Below are positions 1 through 38,170 of a stretch of DNA of 64,000 nt, piece by piece. Position 1 is the stretch's first letter. Every line of letters starts with the position of its first letter. This stretch comes from Acidimicrobiia bacterium (GTDB lineage: Bacteria; Actinomycetota; Acidimicrobiia; IMCC26256; PALSA-610): assembly GCA_027494135.1 (NCBI GenBank), contig JAOSJK010000001.1, forward strand, positions 163,378-227,377. The letters run 5' to 3'. A model generated the notes under the pieces. The model had not been told where the DNA came from. It searched no databases and saw only the letters and a list, made by a program, of their open reading frames with translations. Both the position numbers and the translations under genes were made by a program.

Positions 1-91
1 GCGGTGCTGGTGAAGACGTTCATCGTCAAGACGGCGCGGGTCTGTCCCGCCAAGCACTCGAGAGCTGCGAGACGTTGGGGGAGGCGTACGA

Positions 92-719
92 GTGGTGGCG
101 CGTCGGCGTGAGGGGACCGAGATCACCCGCGATGTGCGCTCGCCTCCCGAGGATGCCGATCGCGAGAGCCCGGTGTGGTTGCGGCCGGTGCGTTCGGGCG
201 ACATCGGGGCGATGTACGAGGCGTCGCAGTCGCCGCGTTCGGCGTTCCGGTGGCGGTTCCGGGGCCCGTTCCCGTCGCCGGGACAGTTCTCCGGAGCTGG
301 CGTTTCGGGGCGTGTTGGTGCAGCTCGTCGTGGAGGACAAGGCGACGCGGAGCGCACACGGCGTGGTGATCGCCTACGACCACATGCCCGAGCACGGCGT
401 CTGCTTCCTGGCGTTCCAGCGCTTCGGAGCGTCGCGCGACGGCGGCGAGATGTTCCTGGGCATGTTCCACTTCGTTGAGTACCTGTTCCAACGGTGGACG
501 TTACGCAAGCTCTACGTGGACCTGCCCGAGTACAACGCGGATCTGATCGGCGACGGCCTGGGCGTGATCACGGAGGAGGGCCGACTGCGCGAGTTCAGCT
601 ACTACGACGGCCGCTACTGGGACCGGATCTTCTACGCGATCGACCGAGACCTCTGGGAGCACAAGGCACAGGTGTGGCACCTCTACCTGACCGACGGGCT
701 CGCCCCCGACGTGCGCTGA
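92..719 (+). pseudogene. GNAT family N-acetyltransferase (RimJ/RimL-like), frame broken once
   Basis: The N-terminal part is in the frame of ORF 92..478 (VWLRPVRSGDIGAMYEASQSPRSAFRWRFRGPFPSPGQF). It continues in the frame of ORF 75..719 (ELAFRGVLVQLVVEDKATRSAHGVVIAYDH...GRYWDRIFYAIDRDLW). The switch is near 285-300. Start codon uncertain. Confidence 0.6.
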
Positions 720-1086
720 ATCAGACGCCCCAGTCTCGACGCACATCCCGGTGGCCGGCTCATCGAAGCCCCCGTCCGCCAGTGCCAGGAAGCCAGCGCG
801 TACCGCCCGCGCCCGACAAACCCCCTGCCGGCGCGCACGTCTTGAGCATCTGTTCGGCGTCGGAGGGCCGAGGTAGCGAATCCCCTCTGGCGAATCGCCC
901 CACGGGCGGAGGTCGCCTAGCGCTCGTTTCGGAGGTCCGGACGAGGCTTCGGCACCGACATGCCGCGCTCGCGCCGTATTCCTCATCGAGCCAGACGCGC
1001 GAGCCTGAACGATGCCGCCAGACCGCTGCCGATCACAAGTACCGCAGCCACGTCGGCGTTCAGCAACTGCATCTCGCAGCCGGCAT

Positions 1087-1608
1087 CTAGCGCAACGAAT
1101 GAATGGTGGACCGATCGAGAACGGCTACCCCCTTTGGCAGTACACCCCTACGCTCCTGTGAGCGGGTGGGGGAGTCAGGCTTCGGGCCAGCAACAGTGAC
1201 CGGACCGTTGGCGTAGCACTCGCCTTCTCCGTACTGGTAACCCGGGCTGTGTCCGACGAACTCATAGACGCCTGGAGCAAGACGGAATGAGAACTTGCCG
1301 TCGGAGCCGACGGGGACATTGAAACGCTGGCCCGATGGGGCAACCGCTGTCACCGTGCCGCCAACGGGCGATCGGAGCGGTCTAGGGCCTCCAACCATTT
1401 GCAGTGTTCCGTGCACGACAACTCGATCGGGCGAGCCGTTGTGTGAAGAGGAGTCTGTCGATGTCGTCGTGGTGCGGTTCACTTCGGCACGGTCCGAGGA
1501 CTTGCTGGACGTTGAGCAGGCTCCGAGGCCAAGTGCCACGGCCAGGAATCCAACGCGAAATCGGGGCATCGGCAATAGGACGCCGACACGACGGCCTTGG
1601 GTTCCCAC
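1087..1608 (-). CDS. putative lipoprotein with carboxypeptidase-regulatory-like beta-sandwich domain
   Basis: ORF 1087..1608. MPRFRVGFLAVALGLGAC is a signal peptide plus lipobox, so the internal ATG at 1569 is the likelier start. SDGKFSFRLAPGVYEF resembles CarboxypepD_reg-type repeats. Confidence 0.55.
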   Translation of the reverse strand: MGTQGRRVGVLLPMPRFRVGFLAVALGLGACSTSSKSSDRAEVNRTTTTSTDSSSHNGSPDRVVVHGTLQMVGGPRPLRSPVGGTVTAVAPSGQRFNVPVGSDGKFSFRLAPGVYEFVGHSPGYQYGEGECYANGPVTVAGPKPDSPTRSQERRGVLPKGVAVLDRSTIHSLR

Positions 1609-2067
1609 GCGCTCACGATGCCCTGATCGCGCTCACTGCGCCAGGACACGCGAGCCTCGACAACCGCGTCGGACGGGTGCGTGCCTCGTAACACAGCACC
1701 CGCAGACTGCATCGCGGCACATCCCGGCGCCTTCGACACCGAACAGCGCGCGCATGGACTCCCATCAACCGACCCGTGTGCACCGAACGTCGCCTGGCAC
1801 TGACCCTCAACGGTGCAACCGGCCACCCTCAACGACAGCCCGACGGCCGGCCGTCGGCGACTCGAGCCCCCACCGGATCGGCACGTGCTCTGACCTGCCA
1901 CATTGAGGATCGCGTTGATGTTCGCGGTGAGGTTCAACCGGCGGATCTGGGGATGTGATGCAGACCCCAGCGGCACGCTGGCCGCCGGCGAGCTTGGTTC
2001 GGCGACGGAGCGGCGTAGGTGCCGCCAACGCGACCCGACCCCTGGGTCCTGTGATCGCCGTGTGTGC

Positions 2068-2823
2068 TCAGCGCCAGCCGAGCCGGCGGGCCTCTTGCTC
2101 GATGACGAGCCCGACGGCTCGTGCGACGCGGATGCCGAGGCGTCGGACCTCGCTCCGGAACGTGCTCCACACCTCGGCGTCGAGCACGGGCCGGACCTGC
2201 AGCGCCCGCAGGTCGTCCGTTGAGGTACCAGCACCGCGTTGATCGGCCTCCACGAACTGCGCGACGCCAACCTCAACGACTCTGGTCAACAGGGCACCGA
2301 GCGTGTCGCCGACCGAGCGGCGCCGACGGATCGCATCCGCCGACACGATCGTCCACGCCTCGGCATGCACCACCACCCGGACCGGAGCGCCACGGTGACG
2401 CTGCTGTGCATACAGCGTCCCCTCAACGCGACGTCGCTCACCATCGAGGGAGCGTTCTACGCGCCGCACACGCGCCTCGATTCGCCGCCGCGCCGAGCCG
2501 GCCCTCAGCTGCTCGTCGAAGACGCCCAGCGCAGCCTCCTCGAGCTCCAGGGCCCGCTGCCGCCGCACGCGTAGATCTGCGGCCCACGCTGCGAACTCGG
2601 CCGGGTTCGCGCTCGGCGACGGTGCCGGCGGGCACAGCTCCGCGAGCGCCGCCCGCAGCAGGACGAGCGCGTCGATCTCCACCGGCCTGCTCGTGCTACC
2701 AGTGCTTCCGCCGGTTCCGCTAGCGAAACCGGCAAGTCTGTGCCCGTCATTCAAAGTGGGATCCGCGCACTCGCGTTGAGGGCGGTCAGCCGGGTCGTCG
2801 GGGTCGGTTGTCGGAGTGTGCAT
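2068..2823 (-). CDS. hypothetical protein (cargo of integrative element), Arg/Glu-rich coiled-coil-like
   Basis: 251-aa ORF divergent from the excisionase/integrase genes. No family recognised. The coding call rests only on length and position. Confidence 0.35.
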   Translation of the reverse strand: MHTPTTDPDDPADRPQRECADPTLNDGHRLAGFASGTGGSTGSTSRPVEIDALVLLRAALAELCPPAPSPSANPAEFAAWAADLRVRRQRALELEEAALGVFDEQLRAGSARRRIEARVRRVERSLDGERRRVEGTLYAQQRHRGAPVRVVVHAEAWTIVSADAIRRRRSVGDTLGALLTRVVEVGVAQFVEADQRGAGTSTDDLRALQVRPVLDAEVWSTFRSEVRRLGIRVARAVGLVIEQEARRLGWR

Positions 2824-2907
2824 GTTCCAGATAAGCGCGTTGCAGACGGCGCGCGCGTCACAACATCAAGTACCGAGTCGCGTTTCGGCGGTCGGTCGCG
2901 CTTCTCC

Positions 2908-3135
2908 ATGGTCATGGGAACCACAAAGACCGCCAACAGCACGCAGCCCGGTACGAGCCGGCCACGACTGCTCGACATCTCACAGGTCGCCGAACGGCTC
3001 GGCGTCTCCGTGCGCCACGTCCGACGACTCGTGTTCGAGCACCGAATCCCCTACGTCAAGTGGGGCCATCTCCTGCGCTTCGACCCGACCCATATCGACG
3101 ACTGGATCGACGCCCACCGCACCCCGCCCGCGTGA
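2908..3135 (+). CDS. excisionase-family helix-turn-helix DNA-binding protein
   Basis: Internal ATG at 2908 of ORF 2740..3135. LLDISQVAERLGVSVRHVRRLVFEHRIPYVKWGHLLRFDPTHIDDWI is the typical Xis/MerR-like HTH_17 pattern. It lies immediately upstream of the integrase. Confidence 0.75.
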   Translation: MVMGTTKTANSTQPGTSRPRLLDISQVAERLGVSVRHVRRLVFEHRIPYVKWGHLLRFDPTHIDDWIDAHRTPPA

Positions 3136-3300
3136 GGCTCCGGTGACTCACTGGCCGCACCTGCGCTTCTACGCCGATCGCCGCGGACCGGTCCCGGCAC
3201 GCCGGGCTACCGTGCTCGGCGCAGTGGGAGTGGGCACTCGCCTCGCATTGTGCGTGGCACTTCCCCGAGCTCGCCCGCCCCTTGAATCCGAGGAGGCGTC

Positions 3301-4485
3301 ATGAGCTCGATCGACCCGACGAAACGATCCCCCGACGGGCGGCCGGTCCGTGACACGCGATGGCGCGCCCGCTGGCGTGACCTCGACGGGCAGCACCGTT
3401 CGAAGTGCTTTGATCGCAAGATCGACGCGCAGCGACACCTCGACACGGTCGGCACCGACATGGTCCGCGGCGAGTACACCGATCCGGCGCTGCGCCGAGC
3501 GCGGTTCGACCAGTGGGCGGAGACGTGGTGGAAGCTCAACGCCGATCGGTTCCGGGCGAGCACGCGCTCGACGTCTCGGCGGATCCTCGACGCCTACGTG
3601 ATTCCGCGATTCGGCCCACGCCGCGTCGGTGACATCGACCGCGCGGACGTAAAGGCGTGGGCGGTGGAGCAGCTCGAGGCGGGCGCCGCGCCACGAACGG
3701 TGCGGAATCGGGTTGCGATCGTGAAGTCGATCCTCGACGAGGCAATCGAAGGTCGAGCGATCCGCGACAACCCGGCTCAGGGGCTCCGCCTACCTCGGGG
3801 CCAGGTAGAGGAGCCGACGTTCCTCACCGCAACCCAGATCGAGGCGCTGGCCGACGCGATCGCCCCGCCGTACGGATTCCTGGTGCGTTTCACGGCATAC
3901 ACGGGGCTCCGGCCGGCCGAAGTCGCCGGGCTGCGACTCCGCCGCCTCGACCTGCTCACGCGCCGCGTCGAGGTGATCGAGACCCTCACCACGGTCGCCG
4001 GCAAGGTCGTTCCCGGCCCCACGAAGACCTTCGCGCGGCGCACCGTCGCGCTCCCCGCCTTTCTGGTCGACGACGCCACGCGCTACCTCGGAGCGCTCAC
4101 GAGTCACTCGGGTTCCGCGATCTCACCCGACGGCTATGTGTTCCGCTCCCCGACCGGCGGACCTCTGAACACCGACAACTGGCGGCGCCGGGTGATGATC
4201 CCCGCATTGGGCCGATCGAGCTTGCCGCTCGGGGTGCGCTTCTACGACCTGCGGCACAGCGCAGCCGCGCTCATGATCGCGGCCGGCGCGCACCCACGGC
4301 TCGTCATGGAGCGTCTCGGCCACGCCGACATCTCCACCACGATGAACGTCTACGGGCACGCGTGGCCGACGCTGCACGAGCAGGTCACCGACCGCCTCGA
4401 CGAGCTGCGCGAGGACGCCTTGCGGTCACCGTGGGCGCCTGCACCCGCGACAGTGATCTCGCACACCCGTCGCCGCTCCGCATGA
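3301..4485 (+). CDS. tyrosine-type site-specific integrase (phage integrase family)
   Basis: 394-aa ORF. N-terminal SAM-like domain, then the catalytic region ...TGLRPAEVAGLRL...YDLRHSAAALMIAAGAHPRLVMERLGHADISTTMNVYGH (R..H-x-x-R..Y signature). Confidence 0.9.
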   Translation: MSSIDPTKRSPDGRPVRDTRWRARWRDLDGQHRSKCFDRKIDAQRHLDTVGTDMVRGEYTDPALRRARFDQWAETWWKLNADRFRASTRSTSRRILDAYVIPRFGPRRVGDIDRADVKAWAVEQLEAGAAPRTVRNRVAIVKSILDEAIEGRAIRDNPAQGLRLPRGQVEEPTFLTATQIEALADAIAPPYGFLVRFTAYTGLRPAEVAGLRLRRLDLLTRRVEVIETLTTVAGKVVPGPTKTFARRTVALPAFLVDDATRYLGALTSHSGSAISPDGYVFRSPTGGPLNTDNWRRRVMIPALGRSSLPLGVRFYDLRHSAAALMIAAGAHPRLVMERLGHADISTTMNVYGHAWPTLHEQVTDRLDELREDALRSPWAPAPATVISHTRRRSA

Positions 4486-4577
4486 GCGGCCCGCAGGCAG
4501 GCCCGGGCCGTTTCCGCAGGCGGTCGGACAGAACGAGCCCGTTGACGCGTTCGCGTCAATGTAGCTACAATGACAGC

Positions 4578-4865
4578 ATGTCAGTAGCTACTACCGGCCG
4601 CGGCGTCGAAGTGGGCGTGCGCGAGCTGAAGAACAACCTCAGCCGCTACCTCGACCAGGTCCGCGACGGCGAAGACGTCATCGTCACCGATCGCGGGCAC
4701 CCCGTCGCACGCCTCACCGCCATCGACGATGCCACTAGCAACCTGGCGCGTCTCGTGGAAGCCGGCCTGGTCCGGGCTCCCACGACCCGCGCCCGACACC
4801 GACCGGCGCGACGAGCGAACGCCGGCGGCTCGGTGAGTGACCTGGTGGCCGAACAACGGCGATGA
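4578..4865 (+). CDS. type II antitoxin, Phd/YefM (prevent-host-death) family
   Basis: ATG at 4578 within long shadow ORF 3657..4865. VGVRELKNNLSRYLDQVRDGEDVIVTDRGHPVARL is the family signature. It overlaps the next gene by ATGA. Confidence 0.8.
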   Translation: MSVATTGRGVEVGVRELKNNLSRYLDQVRDGEDVIVTDRGHPVARLTAIDDATSNLARLVEAGLVRAPTTRARHRPARRANAGGSVSDLVAEQRR

Positions 4866-5314
4866 TCACCTACGTCGACACGTCGATGGTGATCAAGCTC
4901 CTAGTCGAAGAACCCGGCTCCGATCACGCGGGTCGCATCTGGGACGAGGCCGACGGCCTCGTCGCCGCCCGCCTCCTCTACGTCGAGGCGCGATCGGCCC
5001 TGGCAGCAGCGAAGCGAGGAGGCCGACTCTCCGCCGCGCAACATCGCCGAACGAAGGCAGACCTAGAGGATCTCTGGGCCCAGCTGGCGATCGTCGAGAT
5101 CACCACCGAGCTCGTCGCCGACGCCGCCGACCTGAGCGAGCACGACCGCCTGCGCGGCTACGACGCGGTCCACCTCGCCGCGGCGCTGCTCGCCGGCGCG
5201 CACGTCTTCGCAACCGCCGATCAAGACCTCGCCACCGCGGCCGGCCGCCACGGCATGCACGTCGCCAACCCGAGCGATCTCCCGGCCGAAGCGGGCCCCG
5301 GACCGAGCTCGTGA
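4862..5314 (+). CDS. vapC: PIN-domain toxin VapC
   Basis: MITYVDTSMVIKLLVEEPGS...YDAVHLAAALLAGAHVFATADQDL carries the PIN acidic residues. It is translationally coupled to the antitoxin. Confidence 0.85.
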   Translation: MITYVDTSMVIKLLVEEPGSDHAGRIWDEADGLVAARLLYVEARSALAAAKRGGRLSAAQHRRTKADLEDLWAQLAIVEITTELVADAADLSEHDRLRGYDAVHLAAALLAGAHVFATADQDLATAAGRHGMHVANPSDLPAEAGPGPSS

Positions 5315-5454
5315 TCGGCGCTCCTCGTGACACCAAAAAAACACGCTGACACAAGTTTGACGCGGAATTACGGCTTCTCGCGGCCTCTCGCGGACACTGC
5401 CGGATAGCCTCTGACCTGGGCTTTCATCGAAAATACCCGATCTCTCGGAAACGC

Positions 5455-5486
5455 AATTGAGGGTTCGAGTCCCTCCGCTCGCACCC
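5455..5486 (+). other. tRNA 3'-end fragment (T-arm plus acceptor strand); candidate att site of the integrase element
   Basis: GAGGG-TTCGAGT-CCCTC-CGCTCGC-A is a perfect T stem-loop followed by 7 nt of acceptor and a discriminator. No matching 5' acceptor, D-arm or anticodon arm can be folded from the upstream 60 nt. It is preceded by an unusually AT-rich stretch (5330-5450). Confidence 0.5.
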
Positions 5487-5580
5487 TCTCACACCCCACG
5501 ATCGGCCCGGATCGGCGACCATGTCGCGTCTGGCCACCGAATCGGTGGGTAGACGCGACATGAACGGGCCGACGGCCCGA
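5475..5580 (+). repeat. copy 1 of duplicated ~105-nt element with 12-bp inverted repeat (unknown cis-element/RNA)
   Basis: Aligns with 7351..7456. Arms are CATGTCGCGTCT (5520-5531) and AGACGCGACATG (5551-5562), separated by 19 nt that hold an inner CCACCG/CGGTGG stem. It lies 65 nt upstream of the membrane-protein ATG at 5628. Confidence 0.7.
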
Positions 5581-5627
5581 GGCCGCTATTGTTCGGTGCT
5601 GTTCCGCCTGCTTGGGGTGAGGCGACG

Positions 5628-6431
5628 ATGGGGATCGGTGAGACGATGTTCTTCGGCGGGTTCACGATTCTGGCGATGCTCTCCTCCGTGGTCGGGCTCG
5701 GAGTGCTCCTGCTCGCCGTCATAATCCTTGCCTCCGGCCGCGGCGATCCCGACCCGTCCGGCCGTCGGGGTCACGCCGTCTACATTGCAGCGGCCTCGTT
5801 CGTCGCCCTGTTCGCGCTGCTGTTCGCTTCCTTCGCCCTAGTCGCGTCGCTCTCCGGCCTCATCGTCGATGACGACTGCTCGGCCTTCCCGATCGGCGAG
5901 AGCACCACCGTCTTCCCAGGCCTCGAACCCGGTAGCAGCTTCGAGTTCGACACGATGGGCTTCGAGTCCGAAGAGATGCTCTGTCCCAGCCGCGGCAACG
6001 CCGTTGCCCGCGACTCGGTGCGCGCGGGTCTGGTGGCCGCGCTCGCTGCCGGGGTCCTCGGCTTCCACCTGAGACGTCGCCGCGAGATGCTCGACGAGCC
6101 CGGATTCGCAGGCAGCGCCGCCTGGCGCGTCGACCGGGCCTACCTCCAGACGGTCTGCTTCACGACGGTTCTCATCTTCCTGTTCGCCGGAGCCTCCGCC
6201 GCGTACGAGCTGTTCCGAGTCTCCGCCCCGGGCGTCACCGGGGAGTTCCTCTCCCGCCGGGCCGAACGGCAGAACGGCGCTTCCGGTGCCATCCCACTCG
6301 CCTATCTCACACTGGCGACCTGGTGGATCTTCCGCAGGCACTGGGTCCAGGCGCGTCCTGAGTCCGCAGCCTCGGAGACCTCGGAGACCTCGGAGATCGC
6401 CGACATGCCGGAAGCGCCGCCCGACCGCTGA
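5628..6431 (+). CDS. integral membrane protein, unknown function
   Basis: ATG 5628 is preceded by GAGG. There are several hydrophobic spans (FFGGFTILAMLSSVVGLGVLLLAVIIL, AVYIAAASFVALFALLFASFALVASL, VLIFLFAGASAAY, IPLAYLTLATWWIF) and an acidic SETSETSE tail. Confidence 0.6.
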   Translation: MGIGETMFFGGFTILAMLSSVVGLGVLLLAVIILASGRGDPDPSGRRGHAVYIAAASFVALFALLFASFALVASLSGLIVDDDCSAFPIGESTTVFPGLEPGSSFEFDTMGFESEEMLCPSRGNAVARDSVRAGLVAALAAGVLGFHLRRRREMLDEPGFAGSAAWRVDRAYLQTVCFTTVLIFLFAGASAAYELFRVSAPGVTGEFLSRRAERQNGASGAIPLAYLTLATWWIFRRHWVQARPESAASETSETSEIADMPEAPPDR

Positions 6432-6686
6432 CCCGTCGAGGCCGAGCTCCGCGCAGGACTGCACGTCGCCATCCGGTCGATCCCCGGATGGCTCGGGCCC
6501 GGACCGAGTCCGCGACAGGCGGTACCAGCGACACACGAGAGACCCGCCGCGACGCACCTGACGCGATGTCTCGACCACCGCCGGACCGCCTGGGATCCGG
6601 ACGGCTGCCGGCGAGCCGACGACTGCTGCCCGCACCTCCTCGTGCGGCGGCGAACGGCTATTGGGGCGGGGCGATCTCAGGTGCTA

Positions 6687-7343
6687 TCAGCCGAGGGGCG
6701 AGCTTGCCCCCGCAGGCCTCGCCAAGGAGCGAGCTTGCCCCCGCAGGCCTCGCCAAGGAGGTCGTCGGCTATCACAAGCTCCACCCATCCATCCGCGGCA
6801 AACGAGACCGCGTCGTAGTCCGGAGATCTCGTGCGCCGCGCGAAGTGCCGCCATCCCGTCGGTCACAGACTGCCTCGCTCTGACGAGGTGAGCTCGCAGC
6901 GGGTCCTGCGCGTAACCGATTGCACGATGGAGGTCACGATCGAAGGCCGCGAGGTTTCGCCGGTTGAGCACCTTGTAGCGGTCGAAATCACGCTCGGCAA
7001 CATCCCAGTCGAAGGTCGTTCGGGCGGTCGCCTCGCCCGTCGCGACGATCGAGCGATATGCCCTGCAAGCCGCCGGGCTCGGTGGCACCGTCGTCGCTGC
7101 TGTCGCGAGCTCCTCCTGCGTGGCTTGCAGGCGGAGATTGATGCCGTCCAACCCCTCTTCCAGGTCGTTCAGAGCAACGCCGAGGAAGAAGATGCCGAGA
7201 GCAACAGCCGCGGCGGCGCAGACCAGGAGCACGGAGACCACGGAGACCGCAACCACCAGGACTGTCCTCCCGGTGCCGCGGGGCCGGTCAACTCCCGGTC
7301 CGTCCACAATGTGAGCGTACGTCGGAGCCGCCTCCGGAATCAC
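6687..7343 (-). CDS. membrane-anchored hypothetical protein (single N-terminal TM helix)
   Basis: 218-aa ORF. TVLVVAVSVVSVLLVCAAAAVALGIFFLGV is a TM helix followed by a soluble domain. The 3' end runs through the 31-bp duplication, whose length is not a multiple of 3, so the true C-terminus is uncertain. Confidence 0.45.
   Translation of the reverse strand: MIPEAAPTYAHIVDGPGVDRPRGTGRTVLVVAVSVVSVLLVCAAAAVALGIFFLGVALNDLEEGLDGINLRLQATQEELATAATTVPPSPAACRAYRSIVATGEATARTTFDWDVAERDFDRYKVLNRRNLAAFDRDLHRAIGYAQDPLRAHLVRARQSVTDGMAALRAAHEISGLRRGLVCRGWMGGACDSRRPPWRGLRGQARSLARPAGASSPLG
6699..6760. repeat. perfect 31-bp tandem duplication (CGAGCTTGCCCCCGCAGGCCTCGCCAAGGAG x2)
   Basis: Read directly: 6699-6729 equals 6730-6760. 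Each unit holds a GGGGC-GAGCTT-GCCCC type hairpin. Confidence 0.9.
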
Positions 7344-7350
7344 GCGGCCG

Positions 7351-7456
7351 CCGCTCGCACCCCTTCACACCCCCGGCAACGTGCGGATCGCCGACCATGT
7401 CGCGCCTGACCACCGAAACAGTGGCCAGACGCGACATGAACGGCCCGACGGCACGA
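7351..7456 (+). repeat. copy 2 of duplicated ~105-nt element with inverted repeat
   Basis: Arms are CATGTCGCGCCT (7396-7407) and AGACGCGACATG (7427-7438), with the same 19-nt spacing as copy 1. It lies 126 nt upstream of ATG 7565. Confidence 0.7.
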
Positions 7457-7564
7457 AAGCACGACTTGCCCGCCGGCACCGGCGGCCCGGCGACCCACCC
7501 GGCGCGCTCCGCCGACTCCCCCAGATCGATCCCCGGCGCTGGTACCTTGCTGCCGGGAGACGGG

Positions 7565-9142
7565 ATGCGAGACGGGCTGCGGAGGTCGAGACGGGTTCCA
7601 ACGTCGGTACTGGCCGGCCTCGTCGTCGCGGCCTCGGTGCGCGGCCGCTGCCCCTGCATCCGCAGAGATGCGTGCGGGCTACTTCGGGAGCGCCGCCGGC
7701 CTCGACCTGCAGTCGCCCATCGTCGCCATCGCCCCCACCCCAACCGGCAACGGCTACTGGCTCGCAGCCTCCGACGGCGGCATCTTCACCTACGGCGACG
7801 CCCGCTTCCACGGCAGCGCCGGCAACATCGCCCTACGCAACCCCATCGTCGCCATCGCCCCCACCCCAACCGGCAACGGCTACTGGCTCGCAGCCTCCGA
7901 CGGCGGCATCTTCACCTACGGCGACGCCCGCTTCCACGGCAGCGCCGGCAACATCGCCCTACGCAACCCCATCGTCGCCATCGCCCCCACCCCAACCGGC
8001 AACGGCTACTGGCTCGCAGCCTCCGACGGCGGCATCTTCACCTACGGCGACGCCCGCTTCCACGGCAGCGCCGGCAACATCGCCCTACACAGCCCCATCG
8101 TCGCCATCGCCCCCACCCCAACCGGCAACGGCTACTGGCTCGCAGCCTCCGACGGCGGCATCTTCACCTACGGCGACGCCCGCTTCCACGGCAGCGCCGG
8201 CAACATCGCCCTACACAGCCCCATCGTCGCCATCGCCCCCACCCCAACCGGCAACGGCTACTGGCTCGCAGCCTCCGACGGCGGCATCTTCACCTACGGC
8301 GACGCCCGCTTCCACGGCAGCGCCTCGGGCGGGCGTCGGCGCCGGTAAGGGGCATGGGCGCCTCGCGCGACGGCCTCTCGTACTGGCTCGCGGCCTCCGA
8401 CGGGGCGGTCTTCGCCCTCGACGCCGCGGTCCACCCGAGGCCGGCGGGGCGCAGGTTCGCCACGAAGGCACGCCCTCTCGAGGTGCTGATCACCGGCGAC
8501 TCGCTCGCAGTCGCCCTGCAGGACGGGCTCGACACCGGGCTGCGCGCCACGCGGCGGGCGGAGGCGATCCGCAGGGGTCGTTGGTGCTACGGGCTGACCG
8601 CCTCGTGGGAGCCGTCGCCCCCGAATCCCTTCTGCCAGGCATTCTCCTTCTACGCCCCGTCGATGCTCACCGACGAGATCGCCACCTACGACCCCGACGC
8701 CGTCGTGCTGATGCTCGGGACGTGGGACTGGCAGGGCCGGCGGGTCGGCTCCCGCGTGCTCACCCCGCCGAGCGGCCCGTGGTGGCGTTGGTACGAGCGC
8801 ATCATCGACGACGCCTTCCGCCGGCTCACGAGCAAGGGCGCGATCGTCTACTGGGTCGGGTACGCGGCCTGCGACGGCGGCACGCAGACCGACTTCGAGC
8901 GGACCCTGAACGCGACCGCTCGACGGGCGGCGTGGAGGAACCCGACCCGAGCCGTGTACCTCGACCTCCATGCCGAGGTCTGCCCCAACGGGCCGATCAG
9001 GAACCTGGGCAGGCTGCCCGACGGCCGGCGCGTCGTGCTGCTCGACCAGACGGGCCACTTCAGCGAGACCGGCGCCGAGTACACGGGCCGCTGGATCACC
9101 GAGGAGTTGGCGCCCACGTTCCGGCTCCCCAGCCACGACTGA
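7565..9142 (+). pseudogene. secreted lipoprotein: six GYWLAASDGG-type repeats fused to an SGNH/GDSL hydrolase; frame broken twice
   Basis: The signal peptide MRDGLRRSRRVPTSVLAGLVVAAS is in frame 2. The repeats are in frame 0 (ORF 7668..8348: PIVAIAPTPTGNGYWLAASDGGIFTYGDARFHGSAGNIAL x5). The sixth repeat and the SGNH domain (VLITGDSLAVAL...) are back in frame 2 (ORF 7397..9142). Removing one G at 7636-7637 creates the lipobox VAAS-C. Adding one G at 8331-8333 joins the repeats to the hydrolase. Confidence 0.75.
7716..8324 (+). repeat. 126-bp tandem repeat array, ~4.8 near-identical units (coding)
   Basis: Units start at 7716, 7842, 7968, 8094 and 8220. The only differences seen are CGCAAC (RN) versus CACAGC (HS) at the unit ends. 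Confidence 0.95.
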
Positions 9143-9290
9143 CCGCGGCGCGAACCGGCACAGGCCCAGCGCCCCCGTTGCGGCTCGCACCGGGCCGGCA
9201 ACGGCTCCCCGACCTCGACTGACCGCGGCACGAACCGGCACCGGCCCGGCGCCCCGCGGCGGCGCGCACCGGGCCGGCAACGACATCCGC
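9136..9290. repeat. ~80-bp tandem duplication including the hydrolase stop codon
   Basis: CGACTGACCGCGGC(G/A)CGAACCGGCAC...GCACCGGGCCGGCAACG occurs at 9136 and again at 9216. Each unit has a CCGTTGC...GCAACGG-type or GC-rich palindrome. Confidence 0.8.
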
Positions 9291-9374
9291 CCACGACCTC
9301 CACCCACGACGCCCCGTGTGACGTCTGGCACACATCCTTGCCACGGCCTCTGACCGTGAGTCAGGATTTGACCG

Positions 9375-10043
9375 ATGGTCAGAACCGACGCTCCCGACAC
9401 CTCCGATGCGGGCACCGACCGCCGGGAGCGCCGCAAGGCGGAGCGTCGCGAGGCGATTCTCGACGCGGCGCAGCGGCTCTTCACGGTCCGCGGGCTCGAG
9501 GCCACGACCATGGACGACATCGCACGCGAGTGCGACATCGCGAAGGGCACCCTCTACCTGTCGTTCGACAGCAAGGACGACATCGCCTTCGCCGTGCTAT
9601 CCCGTGCACTTCACGAGCTGCACGAGACGCTACGGGCCTCGGTGGTCGACGGCCGCGGTACTGCTCTCGAGCGGATCCAGAGGATCGCCGACGCCTACTA
9701 CGCGTTCTCCGTGGAGCGGCCCGGCGCGTTCCGCTACCTCTTCCTCGTCCCCCACCCCGACTACGCGGGCAGGGTCACACCCGAGGTGGCCGAGGAGACT
9801 GAGCTCCTCGGCTTCGCGTCGCTCGAGCTCCTGGTCGGCCTCCTGCGCCAGGGCGTCGAGGAAAAGTCGCTCGCGCTGAGCGATCCCTGGTCGGCGGCGG
9901 TGGGCATGTGGTCCGCTCTCACCGGCGTGATCGTGATCCCCACGCGCGACGCGCCGAGCAGCCTCGTAGGAGTCGATCACGCCGACCTCGTACGACAGAT
10001 GGTGCAGGCACTGCTACGCGGCCTGCACCCCGATCACGCCTGA
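9375..10043 (+). CDS. TetR/AcrR family transcriptional regulator
   Basis: RREAILDAAQRLFTVRGLEATTMDDIARECDIAKGTLYLSFDSKDDI is the TetR_N HTH. Confidence 0.9.
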   Translation: MVRTDAPDTSDAGTDRRERRKAERREAILDAAQRLFTVRGLEATTMDDIARECDIAKGTLYLSFDSKDDIAFAVLSRALHELHETLRASVVDGRGTALERIQRIADAYYAFSVERPGAFRYLFLVPHPDYAGRVTPEVAEETELLGFASLELLVGLLRQGVEEKSLALSDPWSAAVGMWSALTGVIVIPTRDAPSSLVGVDHADLVRQMVQALLRGLHPDHA

Positions 10044-10122
10044 GCCAGAGACCAGTTCACATCCGCCCGTCACGACCACACACCACAACGCCCACGACAG
10101 TGAGATGAGCCCTGGAGGGGTC

Positions 10123-10782
10123 ATGGATTTCGAGACGCCGCTCTTCGAAGGCAGCCGGTTCCTACGCGCGCTCGGGCCCGACCGGGCCGGGCAGCTGATC
10201 GACCGTTGCGACATCTTCTTCTCCGAGCATCGCGACCACGACGACCTGGCTCGGCTCTTCGCCGCCTTCAGGGCGTCCGAGCACCACACCGTCGCGACGC
10301 TGCGCGAGTGGATGCGCGACACCACCGAGCCCGAGGTCCTCTCCGCCTACTGCGACGTCGCCGCCGAGGAGTCGCGGCATGCCGTGCTGTGGACTGATCG
10401 GATGCGCGCGCTCGTAGGCGACTCGGAGGTCGCGCGCCGCTACGCCGATCCGTGCGGGATGCCCGCCCTGTCCGAGCACTTCCGGCTCTGGGACTCGTAC
10501 GCGACCTCGTGCAGTCTCCCGACACGCCTCGCATACCTCAGCATCGTCGACGCCTGGTCGGGCATCGCCTACAACTCGTATCTTCTCTGGGCGGACTCCT
10601 CGACGCGCGAGACGCTGGAGGAGATACTCGCCGACGAGGTCGCTCACGTAGGGCTGGCAGAGTCCATGATCGACCGCCTTGTTCCCGACGACGATGACCG
10701 CGAGACCATGGCGATCGACGAGGCGTGCATCGCCGGACTCCTCTACGAGGTGACCAACGGGTTCCTGTCGAGCGGAATCTGA
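10123..10782 (+). CDS. ferritin-like di-iron protein (two E-x-x-H motifs), function unknown
   Basis: ATG 10123 is preceded by GGAGGGG. EESRH and DEVAH motifs sit about 100 residues apart, as in di-iron carboxylate proteins. Confidence 0.55.
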   Translation: MDFETPLFEGSRFLRALGPDRAGQLIDRCDIFFSEHRDHDDLARLFAAFRASEHHTVATLREWMRDTTEPEVLSAYCDVAAEESRHAVLWTDRMRALVGDSEVARRYADPCGMPALSEHFRLWDSYATSCSLPTRLAYLSIVDAWSGIAYNSYLLWADSSTRETLEEILADEVAHVGLAESMIDRLVPDDDDRETMAIDEACIAGLLYEVTNGFLSSGI

Positions 10783-10805
10783 CAGGAAGCCCACGAGGAG
10801 CCTGA

Positions 10806-11465
10806 GTGCACGCGATCGCGCCCTTCGCCGGATTGACCGAGTTCAGCAAGGAAGCGCTGGAGCTGCTGCGCGACCCCAGCCAGTTCAAGTGGTACACGGT
10901 CACCCTCATCTCGTTCGTGATGTACGTCTACGCGAACGAGGTCGAGCGCGAGAACTGGTCGGCCGTCCTGGCCGGCATCGCGCTGTGGTGCGCCGACTGG
11001 ATCAACGAGATCATCAACGGCCTGGTCCTCCACTTCACCGACCGGTCGGCGATCTGGACGACCACCGGCGAGACCTCGTACCTGATCCTGATCGGGCTCA
11101 CGATAGAGATCAGCTTCATGTTCCTGGTCGCCGGAGTGATCTTCGTGAAGTCGCTGCCCAAGAACCGGAGCCTGAAGATCCTCGGGATGCCGAACCGATG
11201 GTTCATGGTCCTGGCGTTCTCGTGCTTCGCCGTCATCGTCGAGGTGCTGCTCAACAAGACCGGGTACTTCCACTGGGACTACTGGTGGTGGAACACACCG
11301 TTCGTCGTCCTCATCGTCCTCTTCGGATACGGGTGGTTCTTCCTGGTCGCCGCCTGGGTCTTCGACATGGAGGACCGGCGGCGGCAGGTGAAGGTCGTGG
11401 CCACGATGGCATCCATGGTCGTTGCCGGGCTCCTCGTCTTCGGGACCGTCCTCGGCTGGATCTGA
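10806..11465 (+). CDS. polytopic membrane protein, Trp/Phe-rich, unknown family
   Basis: GTG 10806 is preceded by GAGGAG. About 6 hydrophobic spans. It follows the di-iron gene by 23 nt. Confidence 0.6.
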   Translation: MHAIAPFAGLTEFSKEALELLRDPSQFKWYTVTLISFVMYVYANEVERENWSAVLAGIALWCADWINEIINGLVLHFTDRSAIWTTTGETSYLILIGLTIEISFMFLVAGVIFVKSLPKNRSLKILGMPNRWFMVLAFSCFAVIVEVLLNKTGYFHWDYWWWNTPFVVLIVLFGYGWFFLVAAWVFDMEDRRRQVKVVATMASMVVAGLLVFGTVLGWI

Positions 11466-11624
11466 GGCCACGGCCGGCCCCAACCGGGCCTCCGCCCCCG
11501 TTCCGCCGCCCGGAATCCGGCTCCGAGACGAAGTTCCGGCAGTTTCCGCTCACCCCTTGCCCCGCGCGCGACGAATAGAGACCGTGAGGCGTAGGAGCAC
11601 GGCCGACGCACACAGGACGGGGAC

Positions 11625-13379
11625 TTGAGCCAGCCCGAGAGCAGCGGCGACGAACGAGCGCCGGACACCGATGAGTCAGAGGCACGCGCGGCCGTCCGAC
11701 GGCGCGCGAGGCAGCGCCTCCGTCGGGCCCAGACGTTGGTCGAGCACTCCTCCGACATCCTCTTCATCGTCGATGCCGCCGGCAACCCCATCTACATGAG
11801 TCCCAGAGCCGGGGAGGTCCTCGGATACGCGCAGGACCGCCCGCTCGGGAAGAGCACCCTCGACCTGCTGCACCCCGACGACGTCGAGGCGACTGCCGAG
11901 GCGCTCGCGCTGGTCATGTCGGGTGGCCTCGAACACGAGTCGCTCGTGGTCCGGACACGCACGGTCGACGGTGGCTACCGGCACCTTGAGCTGCGCGCGA
12001 GGAGCTTCCTCGACGATCCCGACGTCGAAGGGGTGCTCGTCAGCGCCCGCGACCTCACGGATCAGAAGCGTGCGGAGGACGACCTCCGGCGCAGTGAGCA
12101 GCGGTTCCGGACCGTCGTACAGAACTCGTCCGACATGATCATCGTCATCGACGCTGCCGCGACGATCTCCTACGTCAGCCCATCGTCGCTGAGGATCCTC
12201 GGTCGATCCGACACCGACCTCGTCGGCACGAACGCACTCGACCTGGTTCACCCAGACGACCTCGAGGCGGTAGCTCGGCGCCTGAAGATGCGCATCGAGG
12301 AGGGCGGCCCCCACGAACCGACCGCACTGCGCGTACTCCACGCCGATGGCAGATGGATCGACATCGAGGTCGTGTCGAACAACCTCCTCGACGACGAGGA
12401 GGTGCGCGGCGTCGTCGTCAACGTCCGGGACATAACCGAGCGGGTCCGGATGACTGCGGCACTGGAGCACGCGCAGAAGCGCCTCGTCGACTCCTTCGAG
12501 CACGCTGCGGTCGGCATGGCCATCCTGGATCTCCAGGGCAACTACGCCCGGGTGAACGCCGCGCTCTGCGAGATGCTGGGCCACGCGGAGGCCGAGCTGC
12601 TCGGATCGTCGTTCGCAGCGGTCACCCACCCCGACTACGTCGACCGCGTGGTGAGCAGCCACGAAGAGGCGGCGGCGCGTGGGAACGACACCTACGAGCT
12701 CGAGAAGCAGTACCTGCACCGCGACGGACACGCGGTCTGGGCGCGATTGGCGATCACGGTGGTTCGCGACGACGAGGGCGATCCCGAGTACTACCTGTCG
12801 CAGGCAATCGACGTGACGGCGCAGAAGGAGCTAGAGAAGCGGCTCGCTCACGAGGCGGTACACGACCACCTCACGGGACTACCCACGCGCCCGCTCCTCT
12901 TCGACCGGCTCGACCAGGCTCTCGCCGCGGCTCGCCGCAGCTCGCGGCAGGTCGGCGTCCTCTTCGTAGACCTCGACGGGTTCAAGCTCGTGAACGACTC
13001 GCTGGGTCACGCAGCCGGCGACGACGTATTGATCGCAGTCGCACGCCGGCTCCGCTCCGCGGTGCGCGAGGTGGACACGCCGGCGCGCTTCGGCGGCGAC
13101 GAGTTCGTCGTCATCTGCCCCGACATCGCTGGGATCGCCGACGCCATAGGGATAGCGGAGCGGATCCGCGAAGCCCTCGAGGCAGGCATCCCGGTGTCGG
13201 GGACCGAGGTGACCATCGGGGCGAGCGTGGGGATCGCCATCGCCGACGGCAGCGCCGCGGGTGACGCGCTGCTTCGGGAGGCCGACTCCGCCACCTACGG
13301 CGTGAAGCGGCGCGGCGGCGGCACCTGGGAGCTGGCCGTGACCACTAACTGCGACGCGGCCCCACCGGACGGATCCTGA
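11625..13379 (+). CDS. PAS/PAC sensor diguanylate cyclase (3 PAS-like modules plus GGDEF)
   Basis: 584 aa, TTG start. Repeated PAS blocks (IVDAAGNPIYMSPRA, IDAAATISYVSPSS, LDLQGNYARVNAAL), then LTGLPTRPLL...RFGGDEFVVICP. Confidence 0.9.
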   Translation: MSQPESSGDERAPDTDESEARAAVRRRARQRLRRAQTLVEHSSDILFIVDAAGNPIYMSPRAGEVLGYAQDRPLGKSTLDLLHPDDVEATAEALALVMSGGLEHESLVVRTRTVDGGYRHLELRARSFLDDPDVEGVLVSARDLTDQKRAEDDLRRSEQRFRTVVQNSSDMIIVIDAAATISYVSPSSLRILGRSDTDLVGTNALDLVHPDDLEAVARRLKMRIEEGGPHEPTALRVLHADGRWIDIEVVSNNLLDDEEVRGVVVNVRDITERVRMTAALEHAQKRLVDSFEHAAVGMAILDLQGNYARVNAALCEMLGHAEAELLGSSFAAVTHPDYVDRVVSSHEEAAARGNDTYELEKQYLHRDGHAVWARLAITVVRDDEGDPEYYLSQAIDVTAQKELEKRLAHEAVHDHLTGLPTRPLLFDRLDQALAAARRSSRQVGVLFVDLDGFKLVNDSLGHAAGDDVLIAVARRLRSAVREVDTPARFGGDEFVVICPDIAGIADAIGIAERIREALEAGIPVSGTEVTIGASVGIAIADGSAAGDALLREADSATYGVKRRGGGTWELAVTTNCDAAPPDGS

Positions 13380-30722: not shown

Positions 30723-32713
30723 CGGGTCCGCCTCCCGACGGCACACCCTCAGGACGCGCACGCACACCGGCCGGCACACCATCCGGACGCGCACGCACAC
30801 CGGCCGGCACACCATCCGGACGCGCACGCACACCGGCCGGAACCCCCTCCGGACGCGCACGCACACCAGCCTCCTCGGTGGGCTCGGGCGCGGCTTCGAC
30901 CGCGGGCATCGAGAGCGTGAACCTGCACCCCCGCCGGGTGCCTCGGTCAGCACCAAGCGGCCACCGAGGAGACCTGCGAGCTGCCGGCAGAGGTAGAGCC
31001 CGAGGCCCGTCCCCCCTGTCTCCGGGTGGACGACTGGTCGAGCTGCACGAAGCGCTGGAAGACCCTCTCGCGGTCCTCCGCCGGGATCCCGGGGCCCTGG
31101 TCGTCGATGGTGAAGAGGATCTCGGCGCCGGAGCGCGACGCGCGGACCTCGATCGGCCCGTCCGGGGCGTACTTGCCGGCGTTCTCCACCAGGTTCGAGA
31201 GGATCTGCTGGAGCTTGACCGGGTCGGTGACCACGGTCTCGATCCCCACACCCACAGACGCCGTTGCGCGCCCATCGGTCAGGCGCGAGGTGTCGCGCAC
31301 CACCTGCTCGAGGAGCTGCGCCACAGCGACGGGACGATGGTTGATCGCAACGGTGTCGTGCTCCGTGGAGGCAACGACGAGGAGCTCGTTGATCAACCTC
31401 TGCAGGCGGTCCCCCTGCTCCGAAGCGGTCTCCAGCAGCGCATGGCGCTTCTCGTCGTCGAGCCTGCCCTCCAGGCGCGTGATGGTGCCCATCCGCCGAG
31501 CATCACGGCAAGCGGCGTTCGGAGCTCGTGGGAGACTGCAGCGACGAAGTCGCCCTTCTGCTGGTTCAGGTCGACCTGACGGGCCAACGCCTGCTCGCGC
31601 TCCTCGTAGAGGCGGGCGTTCGCCGAGGTGAGAGAGGCCTGGCCCGCGAATGCCGCGAGCGTCTCGACCCTGCCGGCCGAGCTCCCGTCGTGCTTCCCCC
31701 TGCCTCCACACGGCGACGACGAGCGGTCCGGCCGCGTCCGGACGCGACGCTGCGGCCAGGAGGCTCTGCGCGTCGGGAATCGCTCTCGTGAGCGTGTCGG
31801 GTCCTCCAGGTTCTGCGTTGCCGCCGAGCGCGAGCTCGCAGTCCCCCGTCCGCCCCGCACTTCTGACGAGCTCGGCGACCAGCTCCGGAGGTGCGGGGCG
31901 CGTCCCGTGATCGTCTACGAGCGATCCCACCCAGGTGCCGCTCGTATCCGTCGAGCAGCACACCGCCGCCAGCCCGGTGCAGAGACTGCGAGCCTCGCCG
32001 GCAAGGAGACCGAGAGCCTCCTCGAATCCCGATAGCCGGGAGGTGCGGGCCGACGCCTCGTAGAGCCGCTCGAAGCGCAGGTGCTCGTCGCGCTGGGCGG
32101 CGGCGTGACGCGAGTTGAGAGCGACGGCGCCTACGAGAGGTACGAGGAGGAGTGGCAGCACGGGGTTCTGCCGGTAGAGCTGATAGGCGATCGGGCCCAG
32201 CGGCGCCGCGGCAAAGGTCATCAGAGCCGCTGTGGGCACGGAACGGACGAGCACGTCGTAGAAGGTCGCGCGCTCGACGATCGACAGCACCATCGCGGTC
32301 GCAGCGACGTCGATGAGCGAGAAGCAGAGCACGCAGGCGATGGCGGCGGCCCATGCGAGCGCGTCGCCGAAGTCGGTGCGACCGAGCGCCTGGAAGGCGA
32401 CGCCTGCGATCGTGACCGCAGCGAGCCGGTTGGTCACGTTGAAGAGCAGCTTCAGACCGGTGGTCCGCTCGGCGAGAAGTGCGACGGCCTCACCGACCGC
32501 CGCGGCGACCCCCGCGCCCACTGGACCTACCAGGAAGAAGGCGACCGGGAGGATGGTCTCGATCAACGTGAACGTGCACTTGTGGCGACGGAACTCGAGC
32601 CGCATGGTGAACGACCCACCCAGCGCGAACGCCACCGCGAGGATCGCGATGGTGCGCGCATCGCCGAGCGTGGAGCCCGCCCCGATGCTGAGGCGAGCGA
32701 AGCCGACTGCCAA
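30703..32713 (-). pseudogene. sensor histidine kinase: polytopic membrane domain, GAF, HisKA and HATPase; frame broken several times
   Basis: TTG 32713. The H-box FVAAVSHELRTPL is in ORF 31393..31860. LSNLVENAGKYAP and IDDQGPGIP are in ORF 30947..32713. ...CRFTLSMP is in ORF 30703..31275. Switches are near 31700, 31500, 31000 and 30950. The 3' end is uncertain. Confidence 0.8.
30740..30871. repeat. 33-bp tandem repeat x4 (GGCACACCATCCGGACGCGCACGCACACCGGCC)
   Basis: Units are at 30740, 30773, 30806 and 30839. The two central units are identical and the outer two are diverged. Confidence 0.9.
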
Positions 32714-36929: not shown

Positions 36930-37285
36930 GGGGGTGCGTGGCTTCGATTCTGGGAATCGAGGTGGGTGAAGCGAGCCGACGTCCCCGGAACGTCGTTAAA
37001 GAGCCGGGACCATAGATACTTGCCGAGGACAACCTCGCACTCGCTGCCTAGTCACTGACTAGCAGCGCGTCCGATCCGACCCAGCCGCTCGGTCGGGACA
37101 GGGCGCCATCTCGAGCGGCTAACCGGTGGGACGGGCCCCGTGGCCCACCGGGACATCACAGCGAGGCTGGGTCCGCCGCCGGGTGCCGATGCCCGACAGC
37201 GGACCGAGATCAATCACCGGCTGCGCTCGGAGAAGCCCCACTGAGAGCCTGGAAGACGCGGGTTCGACTCCCGCCACCTCCACGA
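36930..37285 (+). ncRNA. ssrA: tmRNA (SsrA)
   Basis: The 5' GGGGGTG pairs with the 3' CACCTCC, including the G3:U70 wobble. T-arm is GCGGGTTCGACTCCCGC. The tag ORF at 37022-37051, GCC GAG GAC AAC CTC GCA CTC GCT GCC TAG, encodes AEDNLALAA*. CCA is not encoded (CGA). Confidence 0.9.
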
Positions 37286-37300
37286 TTTCGAGACCTAAGT

Positions 37301-38170
37301 GGCTCTCCTGACATGTTTGTGGGTTAGTTCCGGCCGGGTAGGGCGGGCCGGTGACCGCCGAGGGCGAGCATGGCGAGGGCGATTAGGGCGGCGGGGTTCT
37401 TGAACCCGAAGGCGATGCGGGTGAGGAGCCGGATCTTGGTGTTGGTCGACTCGATGAGAGCGTTGGAGAGCTCGCTGTCGAGGGCTGCGTCGATCTCGGC
37501 GCGGTGACGCCGGATGGCTTGTTGAAGCTTCACGAACGCGGGGATCCGGCAGCGGCACGCCCAGGTGAGCCATCGGTCGAGCGCGTCCTTGCCGGCGTGA
37601 CCCTTGAGCTGGAACACGGTACGTAGACCTTCTTTGAGCAGGTAGGCGCGGTGCAGCCGTGGGTCGGTCTTGGCGATCCAGGCGAGTTTGGCGGCTTGGT
37701 GGTCGGTGAGGTTCTCGGGGTTCTTCCAGAGCGCGTAGCGGGACTGTTGCAAGGCGCGGGCCCGGTCGTGGCCTGGGCGGGGTGGAGCGTCACGACGGGG
37801 GCGGCCGCTTGGTCGGTGGCCTTCGCCGCGAGCAACGGCCCGGGCGTCGTTCCACGCGGCGCGGCGGACCTCGTCGAGGGCGTCGGTGGCCCACGCGACC
37901 ACGTGGAACGCGTCAGCGCACAGGATGGCGTTGGGGCAGTGGGTTCTGACCGCGTTGGCGATCCATGTCGCCGCGTCGGCGCTGACATGGGTGATCAACG
38001 CGCATCGCTCGGCGCCGACCAGCTCGAAGAACGTCGCGAGGGTGGCCTCGTCCCGGCCGACCGAGGCCCACACGAGCCGGCCCGTGTCATGATCGACGAC
38101 CACCGTCAGGTAGCGGTGCCCGCGCTTGTAGCTGATCTCCGAAGACGTCGGTGACGTATACAGCGGTGAG
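37301..38170 (-). mobile_element. ISL3-family IS remnant (5'-truncated), inserted ~15 nt after ssrA
   Basis: The terminal inverted repeat GGCTCTCCTGACATG begins at 37301. The transposase C-terminal ~270 aa are present. The upstream part is missing. Confidence 0.75.
37324..38170 (-). pseudogene. ISL3 family transposase, N-terminally truncated
   Basis: This is the C-terminal part of ORF 37324..39111: ISYKRGHRYLTVVVDHDTGRLVWASVGRD...CADAFHVVAWATDALDEVRR...NALIESTNTKIRLLTRIAFGFKNPAALIALAML. Confidence 0.8.

Follow-up and report, generated by a model that had tools for sequence, protein, structure and literature searches.

Why does a sequence of about 105 nt, with a long inverted repeat inside it, stand twice within 2 kb of the same DNA? 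The locus that raises this question lies in a 64,000-nt stretch from an Acidimicrobiia bacterium (GenBank assembly GCA_027494135.1, contig JAOSJK010000001.1, positions 163,378 to 227,377), which we refer to as the window. A sequence-only reading of the window had described the two copies, each upstream of a gene for an envelope protein, and had left open whether they encode a short leader peptide, form a structured RNA or attenuator, bind a protein, or go back to a recombination site with an inserted module between them. We lean towards the last of these, namely that the two copies mark, as att-like junction repeats, the ends of a small module inserted beside a tRNA integration site, and are centered on a terminator-like intergenic hairpin. 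A recombination origin is favored because copy 1 abuts an apparent attR-type tRNA fragment, copy 2 repeats the tRNA end, and independent loci in related genomes show a pair of hairpins around a module and an empty site that holds one hairpin; the insertion in the window itself is argued by analogy.

The two copies share a tRNA end and a long hairpin

A repeat search of the window recovered a direct repeat in two copies (n=2), 5472-5580 and 7348-7456, which are 82% identical over 109 nt without gaps. A local alignment of the two gave 83% identity, and MAFFT concurred on the repeat, which bears out the duplicated element of ~105 nt that had been described by eye. The copies are laid out as follows.

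5472..5580, plus strand: repeat copy 1, with block A at 5475-5497, a spacer at 5498-5508 and block B at 5509-5580
5520..5562, plus strand: hairpin/palindrome of copy 1, 43 nt, with an outer stem of 12-13 bp, an internal mismatch, an inner stem of 6 bp and a loop of 3 nt
5566-5578: small palindrome GGGCCGACGGCCC after the copy 1 hairpin
7348..7456, plus strand: repeat copy 2, with block A at 7351-7373 (the final 12 nt of the tRNA, then 11 nt of trailer) and block B at 7385-7456
7396..7438, plus strand: hairpin/palindrome of copy 2, 43 nt, with complete pairing on the minus strand only, via G-U pairs

Both copies open with CCGCTCGCACCC, and both contain the inverted repeat CATGTCGCG(T/C)CT-19 nt-AGACGCGACATG at the same spacing (5520-5562 and 7396-7438), as had been noted before; from shuffled sequences, 0 matches to this pattern are expected. 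The repeat is bipartite, since block A (21 of 23 nt identical between the copies), which consists of the tRNA end and 11 nt, is separated by 11 unrelated nt from block B, which consists of the hairpin and short flanks. Upstream of 7351 there is no T-arm, and the likeness of copy 2 to copy 1 begins in the acceptor strand and takes in the 11-nt trailer. Because 21 of 23 nt of "tRNA end plus trailer" are repeated in copy 2, block A cannot be part of a free-standing hairpin element, and copy 2 is therefore a second copy of "tRNA end, trailer and hairpin" rather than a free hairpin element. What recurs in copy 2 is limited to the final 12 nt of the tRNA, the trailer and the hairpin, so that att-like repeats delimit the 1.77 kb in between.

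When folded against dinucleotide shuffles, the plus strand gave z = -4.2 for copy 1 and -4.3 for copy 2, and the minus strand gave z = -3.0 and -5.5, respectively, with the better predicted pairing on the plus strand for copy 1 and on the minus strand for copy 2. The 43-mers fold at -24 to -36 kcal/mol, and the 106-mers reach a z of about -4. A similar small palindrome follows each of the two hairpins. Neither hairpin has a T-tail behind it, neither was reported by the terminator scan, and copy 2 is located between divergently oriented genes. A cmscan of window positions 1-12000 against Rfam (E <= 1) returned nothing relevant and one chance microRNA match elsewhere, in agreement with the earlier remark that the element could not be matched to a known riboswitch or small RNA class. 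No third copy was found in the 64-kb window, either with an nhmmer profile built from both copies or with relaxed searches for the arms. A candidate degenerate copy near 9183 (GCTCGCACC) was discarded, as its 9-mer match is at chance level.

Copy 1 abuts an integrase island

On its left, copy 1 adjoins an island that comprises the following features.

2908..3135, plus strand: excisionase-family helix-turn-helix gene of the island (NCBIfam TIGR01764, 41.4 bits, cutoff 28.8; Pfam HTH_17 on an identical Logan contig)
3301..4485, plus strand: phage-type tyrosine integrase (Pfam Phage_integrase/Phage_int_M), with homologues beside tRNA or tmRNA 3' fragments
4482..5314, plus strand: Phd/YefM antitoxin gene (4482-4865) and PIN toxin gene (4862-5314), both by Pfam matches; island cargo adjoining the junction
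5456..5486, plus strand: tRNA 3' fragment of ~30 nt, with T-arm GAGGG-TTCGAGT-CCCTC, acceptor strand CGCTCGC and ACC, read from the sequence

The window thus holds a tyrosine integrase and an excisionase beside a partial tRNA 3' copy, which copy 1 immediately follows, and same-orientation repeats that have one edge in the tRNA 3' end. ARAGORN found no complete tRNA in the window, only a tmRNA (36930-37283), and none in the extra 1.9 kb of Logan contig L003; no tRNA with this acceptor was found by ARAGORN in any of the fetched loci. The window tmRNA was ruled out as the origin of the tRNA fragment, since the 3' ends differ.

Two homologues of the integrase (L074, 66% identity, and L075, 62%) are each followed by GGTTCGACTCCC(T/A)CCGCTCGCACC, a near-identical tRNA fragment, and the DNA past this tRNA end is unlike that of the window and contains no hairpin. 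A third homologue (L076, 59% identical), with the same int-Phd-PIN order, is found at a tmRNA 3' end. Judging from these alignments, 5456-5486 is the core of the right junction of the island (attR-type). Since L074 and L075 share the tRNA fragment but then continue into unrelated, hairpin-free DNA, the DNA from 5487 on, hairpin included, is host-side and not in the attachment site of this integrase family. Logan assemblies of the same strain (SRR25580095) break at 5440-5464 (the end of L004 and the start of L073), within the P-arm/tRNA core of the island, which suggests that other junctions occur in the population, for instance an excised attP or an allele without the island. The integrase is not an integron integrase: it scores 38.9 bits against TIGR02249 (cutoff 265), and only the 67 residues at its C-terminus lie in the match.

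The motif CTCTGACCTG occurs ~50 nt upstream of the T-arm copy in the window (~5404-5416) and also in L074, L075 and L076. Since elements located at a tRNA and at a tmRNA alike have it, it is likely an element-side binding site, predicted to lie in the P-arm. In the window, the tmRNA is directly followed by a long open reading frame (ORF) on the minus strand (37324-39111). The tmRNA 3' end at L076, which is the target of a relative of the window integrase, is identical over 25 nt to the end of the window tmRNA, and the latter may therefore be an integration hotspot as well.

The same hairpin brackets a module in a related genome

To place the hairpin in other genomes, we scanned 185,579 species genomes with the pattern ACCATGTCGCG-N20-30-CGCGACATGAAC, which returned 2 loci (L001 and L002). 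L002, an Acidimicrobiia metagenome-assembled genome (JAOSJL01), carries two hairpins 1674 nt apart, and these are the only exact-arm copies in the whole assembly. They are identical to window copy 1 at 39 of 43 nt and share the CGAC and AACGGG flanks; the L002 pair itself is 90.5% identical over 84 nt by local alignment. We refer to the family formed by the window pair and the L002 pair (four copies) as W-type, and to the hairpins of two further loci described below, L112 and L114, as X-type. The L002 pair brackets a phosphoribosyltransferase (PRTase) gene and a DprA-like gene, which match the PADLOC models ShosT/ShosA and PsyrT/PsyrA as well as Pfam Pribosyltran and DNA_processg_A. ShosTA is a toxin-antitoxin defence system (PMC11961720, PMC12961424). 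This module has the 3' end of egtD on one side and a gene for a GDE-type glycosidase on the other, and the W-type hairpins there stand 3' of genes or beside minus-strand genes. Throughout, the W-type copies form same-orientation pairs around a module.

The second locus, L001, holds a single hairpin directly after the stop codon of an hspR-like gene, with the same arms and flanks and with an interior that differs yet keeps its pairing. The outer 9 bp and the CGAC/AACGG flanks are invariant in all W-type copies and in L001, and the interior is variable. We looked for the compensatory stem changes that had been proposed as a check: the four W-type copies show none, and one stem position never pairs, but these copies are too similar to be informative. 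L002 possesses one further, solo hairpin (7834-7897, 61 nt, GTTCTTGCGTCACTT...AAGTGACGCAAGAAC plus a G-rich tail), with an 11-nt duplication, CGGGCCGACCG, within a small palindrome at its boundaries. The orthologous spot of L112 (~4441-4449) lacks this hairpin, and hairpins in this group can therefore also appear singly.

No W-type copies were found among 241 million metagenome records or in IMG/VR, where the pattern scans gave nothing or unrelated palindromes only. The metagenome scan returned 68 loci, mostly coding-sequence coincidences in three conserved gene families; about 5 of the 68 form a separate hairpin subfamily (CCATGTCGCGCTCAGT...), and several of the contigs stop near related hairpins. 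The metagenome hairpins were set aside as homologues, since this stem base is expected by chance at that database size. BLASTN of copy 1 against PLSDB plasmids and INPHARED phages, and of the L112 hairpin against PLSDB, gave chance matches or none, and tblastx detected no orthologous genes shared by the window genome and L002 or L112 in the sequence compared.

Filled and empty sites between GDE and egtD

Relatives of the L002 locus were obtained through orthologues of its GDE glycosidase, of which >100 were listed. In L112 (ERZ25039603), whose GDE protein is 86% identical to that of L002, the genes have the same order (GDE, PRTase, DprA-like, egtD), and both intergenic hairpins belong to the other family, CTTTGGCGTCACTTACTC...GAGTAAGTGACGCCAAAG (82 nt, 80.5% identical). 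One base pair is changed on both sides between the two L112 copies, and among three X-type sequences there are three pairs with both sides changed. In L114 (83% identical), GDE directly faces egtD, without the module and with a single X-type hairpin in between, and the independent Logan contig L115 shows the same arrangement. L114 is collinear with the L112 left flank plus its first hairpin (X1), and likewise with the second hairpin (X2) plus the right flank. By this alignment, L114 stands to L112 as an empty site stands to the two junctions of an insertion (attB versus attL/attR) or, equally well, as the outcome of a precise deletion between the repeats.

The module proteins of L002 and L112 are 56% and 64% identical, versus 86% for GDE (L002 289-1790; L112 10528-12026), which fits either fast evolution or an independent filling of the site. 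Strong hairpins (at least 14 bp) are rare and clustered at module boundaries, where we find 2 of the 4 in the window, both of the 2 in L112 and 2 of the 3 in L002.

A proposed history of the window locus

In the history that we propose, the ancestral locus would have been a tRNA gene followed by a trailer with a long, GC-rich, terminator-type hairpin. A 1.77-kb module of two genes would have entered by recombination, and if the stretch that recombined began with the final 12 nt of the tRNA and extended through the hairpin, it would now be present once on either side of the module. The island with the excisionase, the integrase and the Phd-PIN pair would have joined the same tRNA later or independently, which would have put the tRNA fragment of ~30 nt in front of copy 1. 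Candidate agents are a recombinase that acts in trans on the hairpin or a RecA-type single crossover of a circular module with one hairpin copy. The hairpin may have been a transcription terminator too, which is plausible for the ancestral single copy. By analogy with the modules of the relatives, the window module may have arrived through the same kind of event, with the hairpin as the putative recombining core.

Several points weigh against this history. Since no empty site was obtained for the window locus and the intact tRNA lies outside the window, we infer the insertion there by analogy. The window copies are 17-18% diverged and include an 11-nt unrelated block, and therefore the event would be old or the partners were never identical. 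No recombinase was found within 8-18 kb of the hairpin pairs in L002, L112 and L114, and thus none is linked to the hairpins at these loci. The L112 repeat is the hairpin element alone, and the same picture would result if a module had carried in a terminator of its own from a locally common family. Finally, the L002 hairpins differ in family from those of L112 and L114 at the same site, which requires an extra replacement or an independent insertion.

Genes between the copies and to the right of copy 2

The module and the gene beyond copy 2 are arranged as follows.

5581..7347: module between the repeats, 1.77 kb, two genes, from ORFs and homologues
5628-6431, plus strand: gene for a multi-pass membrane protein whose homologues have faint DUF5671 matches
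6687-7343, minus strand: gene for an N-terminally anchored protein of 218 aa, convergent with 5628-6431
7565..9142, plus strand: gene to the right of copy 2, split over two frames

Neither module gene matched a PADLOC, Pfam or NCBIfam family, and the genes between and beside the copies are not transposases. Homologues of the 5628-6431 gene occur in differing contexts, and the sole one with DNA (L078) lacks the hairpin. In the window, the copies do stand upstream of envelope-protein genes, and the distances given for them (65 nt to ATG 5628 and 126 nt to ATG 7565) are correct if measured from the hairpin ends; the relation fails in L002, the only related genome with this hairpin. At ATG 7565, the distance holds, but the gene itself is disrupted or mis-assembled. 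It has a signal- or transmembrane-like start, followed by five 126-nt repeats that encode GYWLAASDGGIFTYGDARFHGS in another frame (7668-8348) and by a C-terminal domain that returns to the first frame (8350-9142); either the gene is a pseudogene or the repeat was mis-assembled.

Further tandem repeats were observed in the window. A 31-nt tandem duplication (94% identical) lies at 6690-6751, at the 3' end of the minus-strand gene 6687-7343, and Logan contigs L003 and L073 both stop at 6727, within it. An 80-nt tandem duplication at 9122-9282, between the stop of ORF 8350-9142 and a TetR gene at 9375, carries a small stem, CGTTGC...GCAACG, in each unit. Tandem arrays at 32797-33236 and 30734-30898, with periods of 15 nt and 33 nt, are probably coding repeats.

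Other explanations for the repeat

We considered whether the hairpin moved on its own. The 43-nt palindrome with its short flanks (CGAC...AACGG) could be a non-autonomous element of the repetitive extragenic palindrome (REP) type or the MITE type (a miniature transposable element with inverted repeats) that copies itself into intergenic spots, in which case the two copies would be separate insertions or a local hop, unrelated to the arrival of the module. This is possible but rather unlikely. The near-identical hairpin at unrelated loci of another genome, always between a 5' CGAC and a 3' AACGG(G), speaks for it, as do the solo L002 hairpin that is missing in L112, the similar small palindrome behind both window hairpins, the turnover of hairpin families between genomes whose GDE proteins are 86% identical, and the metagenome contigs that end close to related hairpins. 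On the other hand, the copy number is very low, with 2 copies in 64 kb, exactly 2 with exact arms in the L002 assembly and none of the W-type in the metagenome records or IMG/VR. The copies are always same-orientation pairs around a module, and block A with the tRNA end was duplicated along with the hairpin, although it would be no part of a hairpin element. Neither a RAYT-type nor another transposase was identified, though no systematic domain scan of all window ORFs was made. The flanks of the W-type copies give no clear target-site duplication; an 11-nt duplication together with absence in L112 is found only for the different, solo hairpin of L002. A role at the RNA level, with the hairpin as a tail-less terminator of the intrinsic type, a 3'-end stabilizer or a stem in the 5' untranslated region (UTR) of downstream envelope genes and the duplication as incidental, seems to us improbable. 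The very stable predicted fold is consistent with such a role, and so are the position of hairpins directly after stop codons in L001, L002, L112 and L114, often between convergent genes, the position of copy 1 behind a tRNA 3' end, and the three X-type pairs changed on both sides. However, there is neither an Rfam match nor a T-tail, copy 2 stands between divergent genes, where there is no transcript to terminate, and the two copies pair better on opposite strands. The W-type copies lack compensatory change and have a stem position that is never paired, the neighboring genes in L002 are on the opposite strand, so the relation to a 5' UTR is not conserved, and the repeated tRNA end is left unexplained by a terminator. 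The proposal of a structured 5'-UTR RNA or attenuator, against which the Rfam result, the opposite strand preferences and the gene positions in L002 all speak, is thus not upheld.

The two remaining proposals fare worse. It is very unlikely that the palindrome is an operator, bound on 9-bp half-sites (CATGTCGCG/CGCGACATG) by a dimeric protein that regulates the adjacent genes or acts as an accessory recombination factor. The invariance of the outer 9 bp and of the CGAC/AACGG flanks against a variable interior is what favors it, but the invariance of the arms is partly imposed by our search pattern, and the half-sites are 25 nt apart. The interior is self-complementary, and in L001 the pairing is kept at a different sequence and length, which therefore points to a hairpin rather than two duplex half-sites. 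Moreover, hairpins with this stem base occur at about the chance rate in very large databases, and the neighboring genes are wholly different between loci. As for a leader peptide, MSRL(A/T)TE(S/T)V(G/A)RRDMNGPTAR, that would control downstream expression, both copies do contain an ORF opened by ATG, and our count agrees with the three synonymous and three non-synonymous changes among the six differing codons. But the other changes affect codon positions 1 and 2 (GCC/ACC/CCC, GGT/GCC/GTC) and lie where the hairpin is unpaired (loop and internal mismatch), the translations diverge right after the palindrome (ORFs of 67, 581, 32 and 112 aa), and the different length of the interior in L001 shifts the frame, so that the palindrome itself contains a stop. 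The palindrome also yields, as a by-product, a mirror MSRL...RRDM ORF on the minus strand, and no Shine-Dalgarno sequence precedes either ATG (5521 and 7397) as read from the sequence. We regard a leader peptide as hardly credible and have dropped it.

Relation to known systems

Nearest to the locus are the direct repeats that integration leaves at tRNA genes, including integrase-less remnants in tandem arrays. As with attL/attR of tRNA-targeting elements, the repeat has its start in a tRNA's 3' acceptor strand, it adjoins an xis-int island, a small gene set without an integrase lies between same-orientation repeats, and an empty site with one repeat exists in an analogous set of loci (L114 versus L112 and L002). 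Unlike such sites, the repeat includes only 12 nt of tRNA followed by ~95 nt of trailer and hairpin, the same hairpin is paired in another genome with no tRNA nearby, and the adjoining integrase family has no hairpin in its attachment site.

Hairpin repeats that flank genes are known as REP, REPIN and BIME and as dRS3/NTS of Neisseria (PMC2817692, PMC3116915, PMC11893778). Like our hairpins, these are GC-rich and intergenic, conserve the bases at the foot of the stem, lie 3' of genes and sometimes on both sides of a gene, and form lineage-specific families with turnover. REPs, however, number tens to hundreds per genome, often as inverted doublets next to RAYT, whereas there are two per assembly here in direct orientation, no RAYT or GIY-YIG gene was seen, and the repeat includes a non-hairpin flank, the tRNA end. 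The ends of IS200/IS605 elements and of cargo-only palindrome-associated transposable elements (PATEs) resemble the locus in that each end of a unit of ~1.7-1.9 kb has a similar subterminal hairpin, both pointing the same way and each with a conserved tetranucleotide at its foot. Yet the L114 empty site, at an analogous locus, keeps one hairpin, whereas peel-and-paste elements take both along; TnpA and TnpB are also absent here, and the flanks shared by the repeats extend to either side of the hairpin. Tail-less (I-shaped) terminators of high-GC Actinomycetota likewise are long, GC-rich stem-loops without a U-tract, right after stop codons or a tRNA gene and often between convergent genes, but independent terminators share no sequence across loci and genomes, and copy 2 lies between divergent genes.

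With integron attC sites, the hairpins have in common that they are imperfect two-stem palindromes with unpaired bases, one per cassette boundary and in the same orientation, with sequences that are similar within an array and differ between hosts; the cargo of integrons also includes toxin-antitoxin modules. The differences are that RYYYAAC/GTTRRRY core sites are lacking, the stem base here being CATGTCGCG/CGCGACATG with CGAC and AACGG flanks and without paired AAC/GTT boxes, that no IntI is found in the window (the TIGR02249 score is far below cutoff) and no recombinase near the L002, L112 and L114 pairs, and that a unit has not one promoterless ORF but two genes, which are convergent in the window, with no array of more than one unit seen. 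We nevertheless put forward, as a doubtful extension of the junction-repeat reading, that long intergenic hairpins could be recombination sites in some Acidimicrobiia, with integron-like insertion and excision of cassettes at terminator hairpins by a trans-acting recombinase. The cargo in that case could be toxin-antitoxin or defence pairs and membrane proteins, with a hairpin on each side of a cassette and one in the empty site.

Meaning for accessory gene insertion in Acidimicrobiia

On the junction-repeat reading, if correct, the element marks the edges of a small, horizontally acquired module beside a tRNA integration hotspot rather than being a new regulatory RNA. The related loci, from a poorly studied actinobacterial class, show small accessory modules, including a ShosTA-like pair, between matched long hairpins, and a module-free allele that keeps one hairpin. 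The pattern of paired hairpins is thus a searchable signature for cassette-like insertions and a testable entry to how genes are inserted at terminator regions with no linked recombinase. Should the hairpin itself prove to be what recombines, a mechanism akin to that of integrons would exist in a lineage for which, to our knowledge, none has been described so far.

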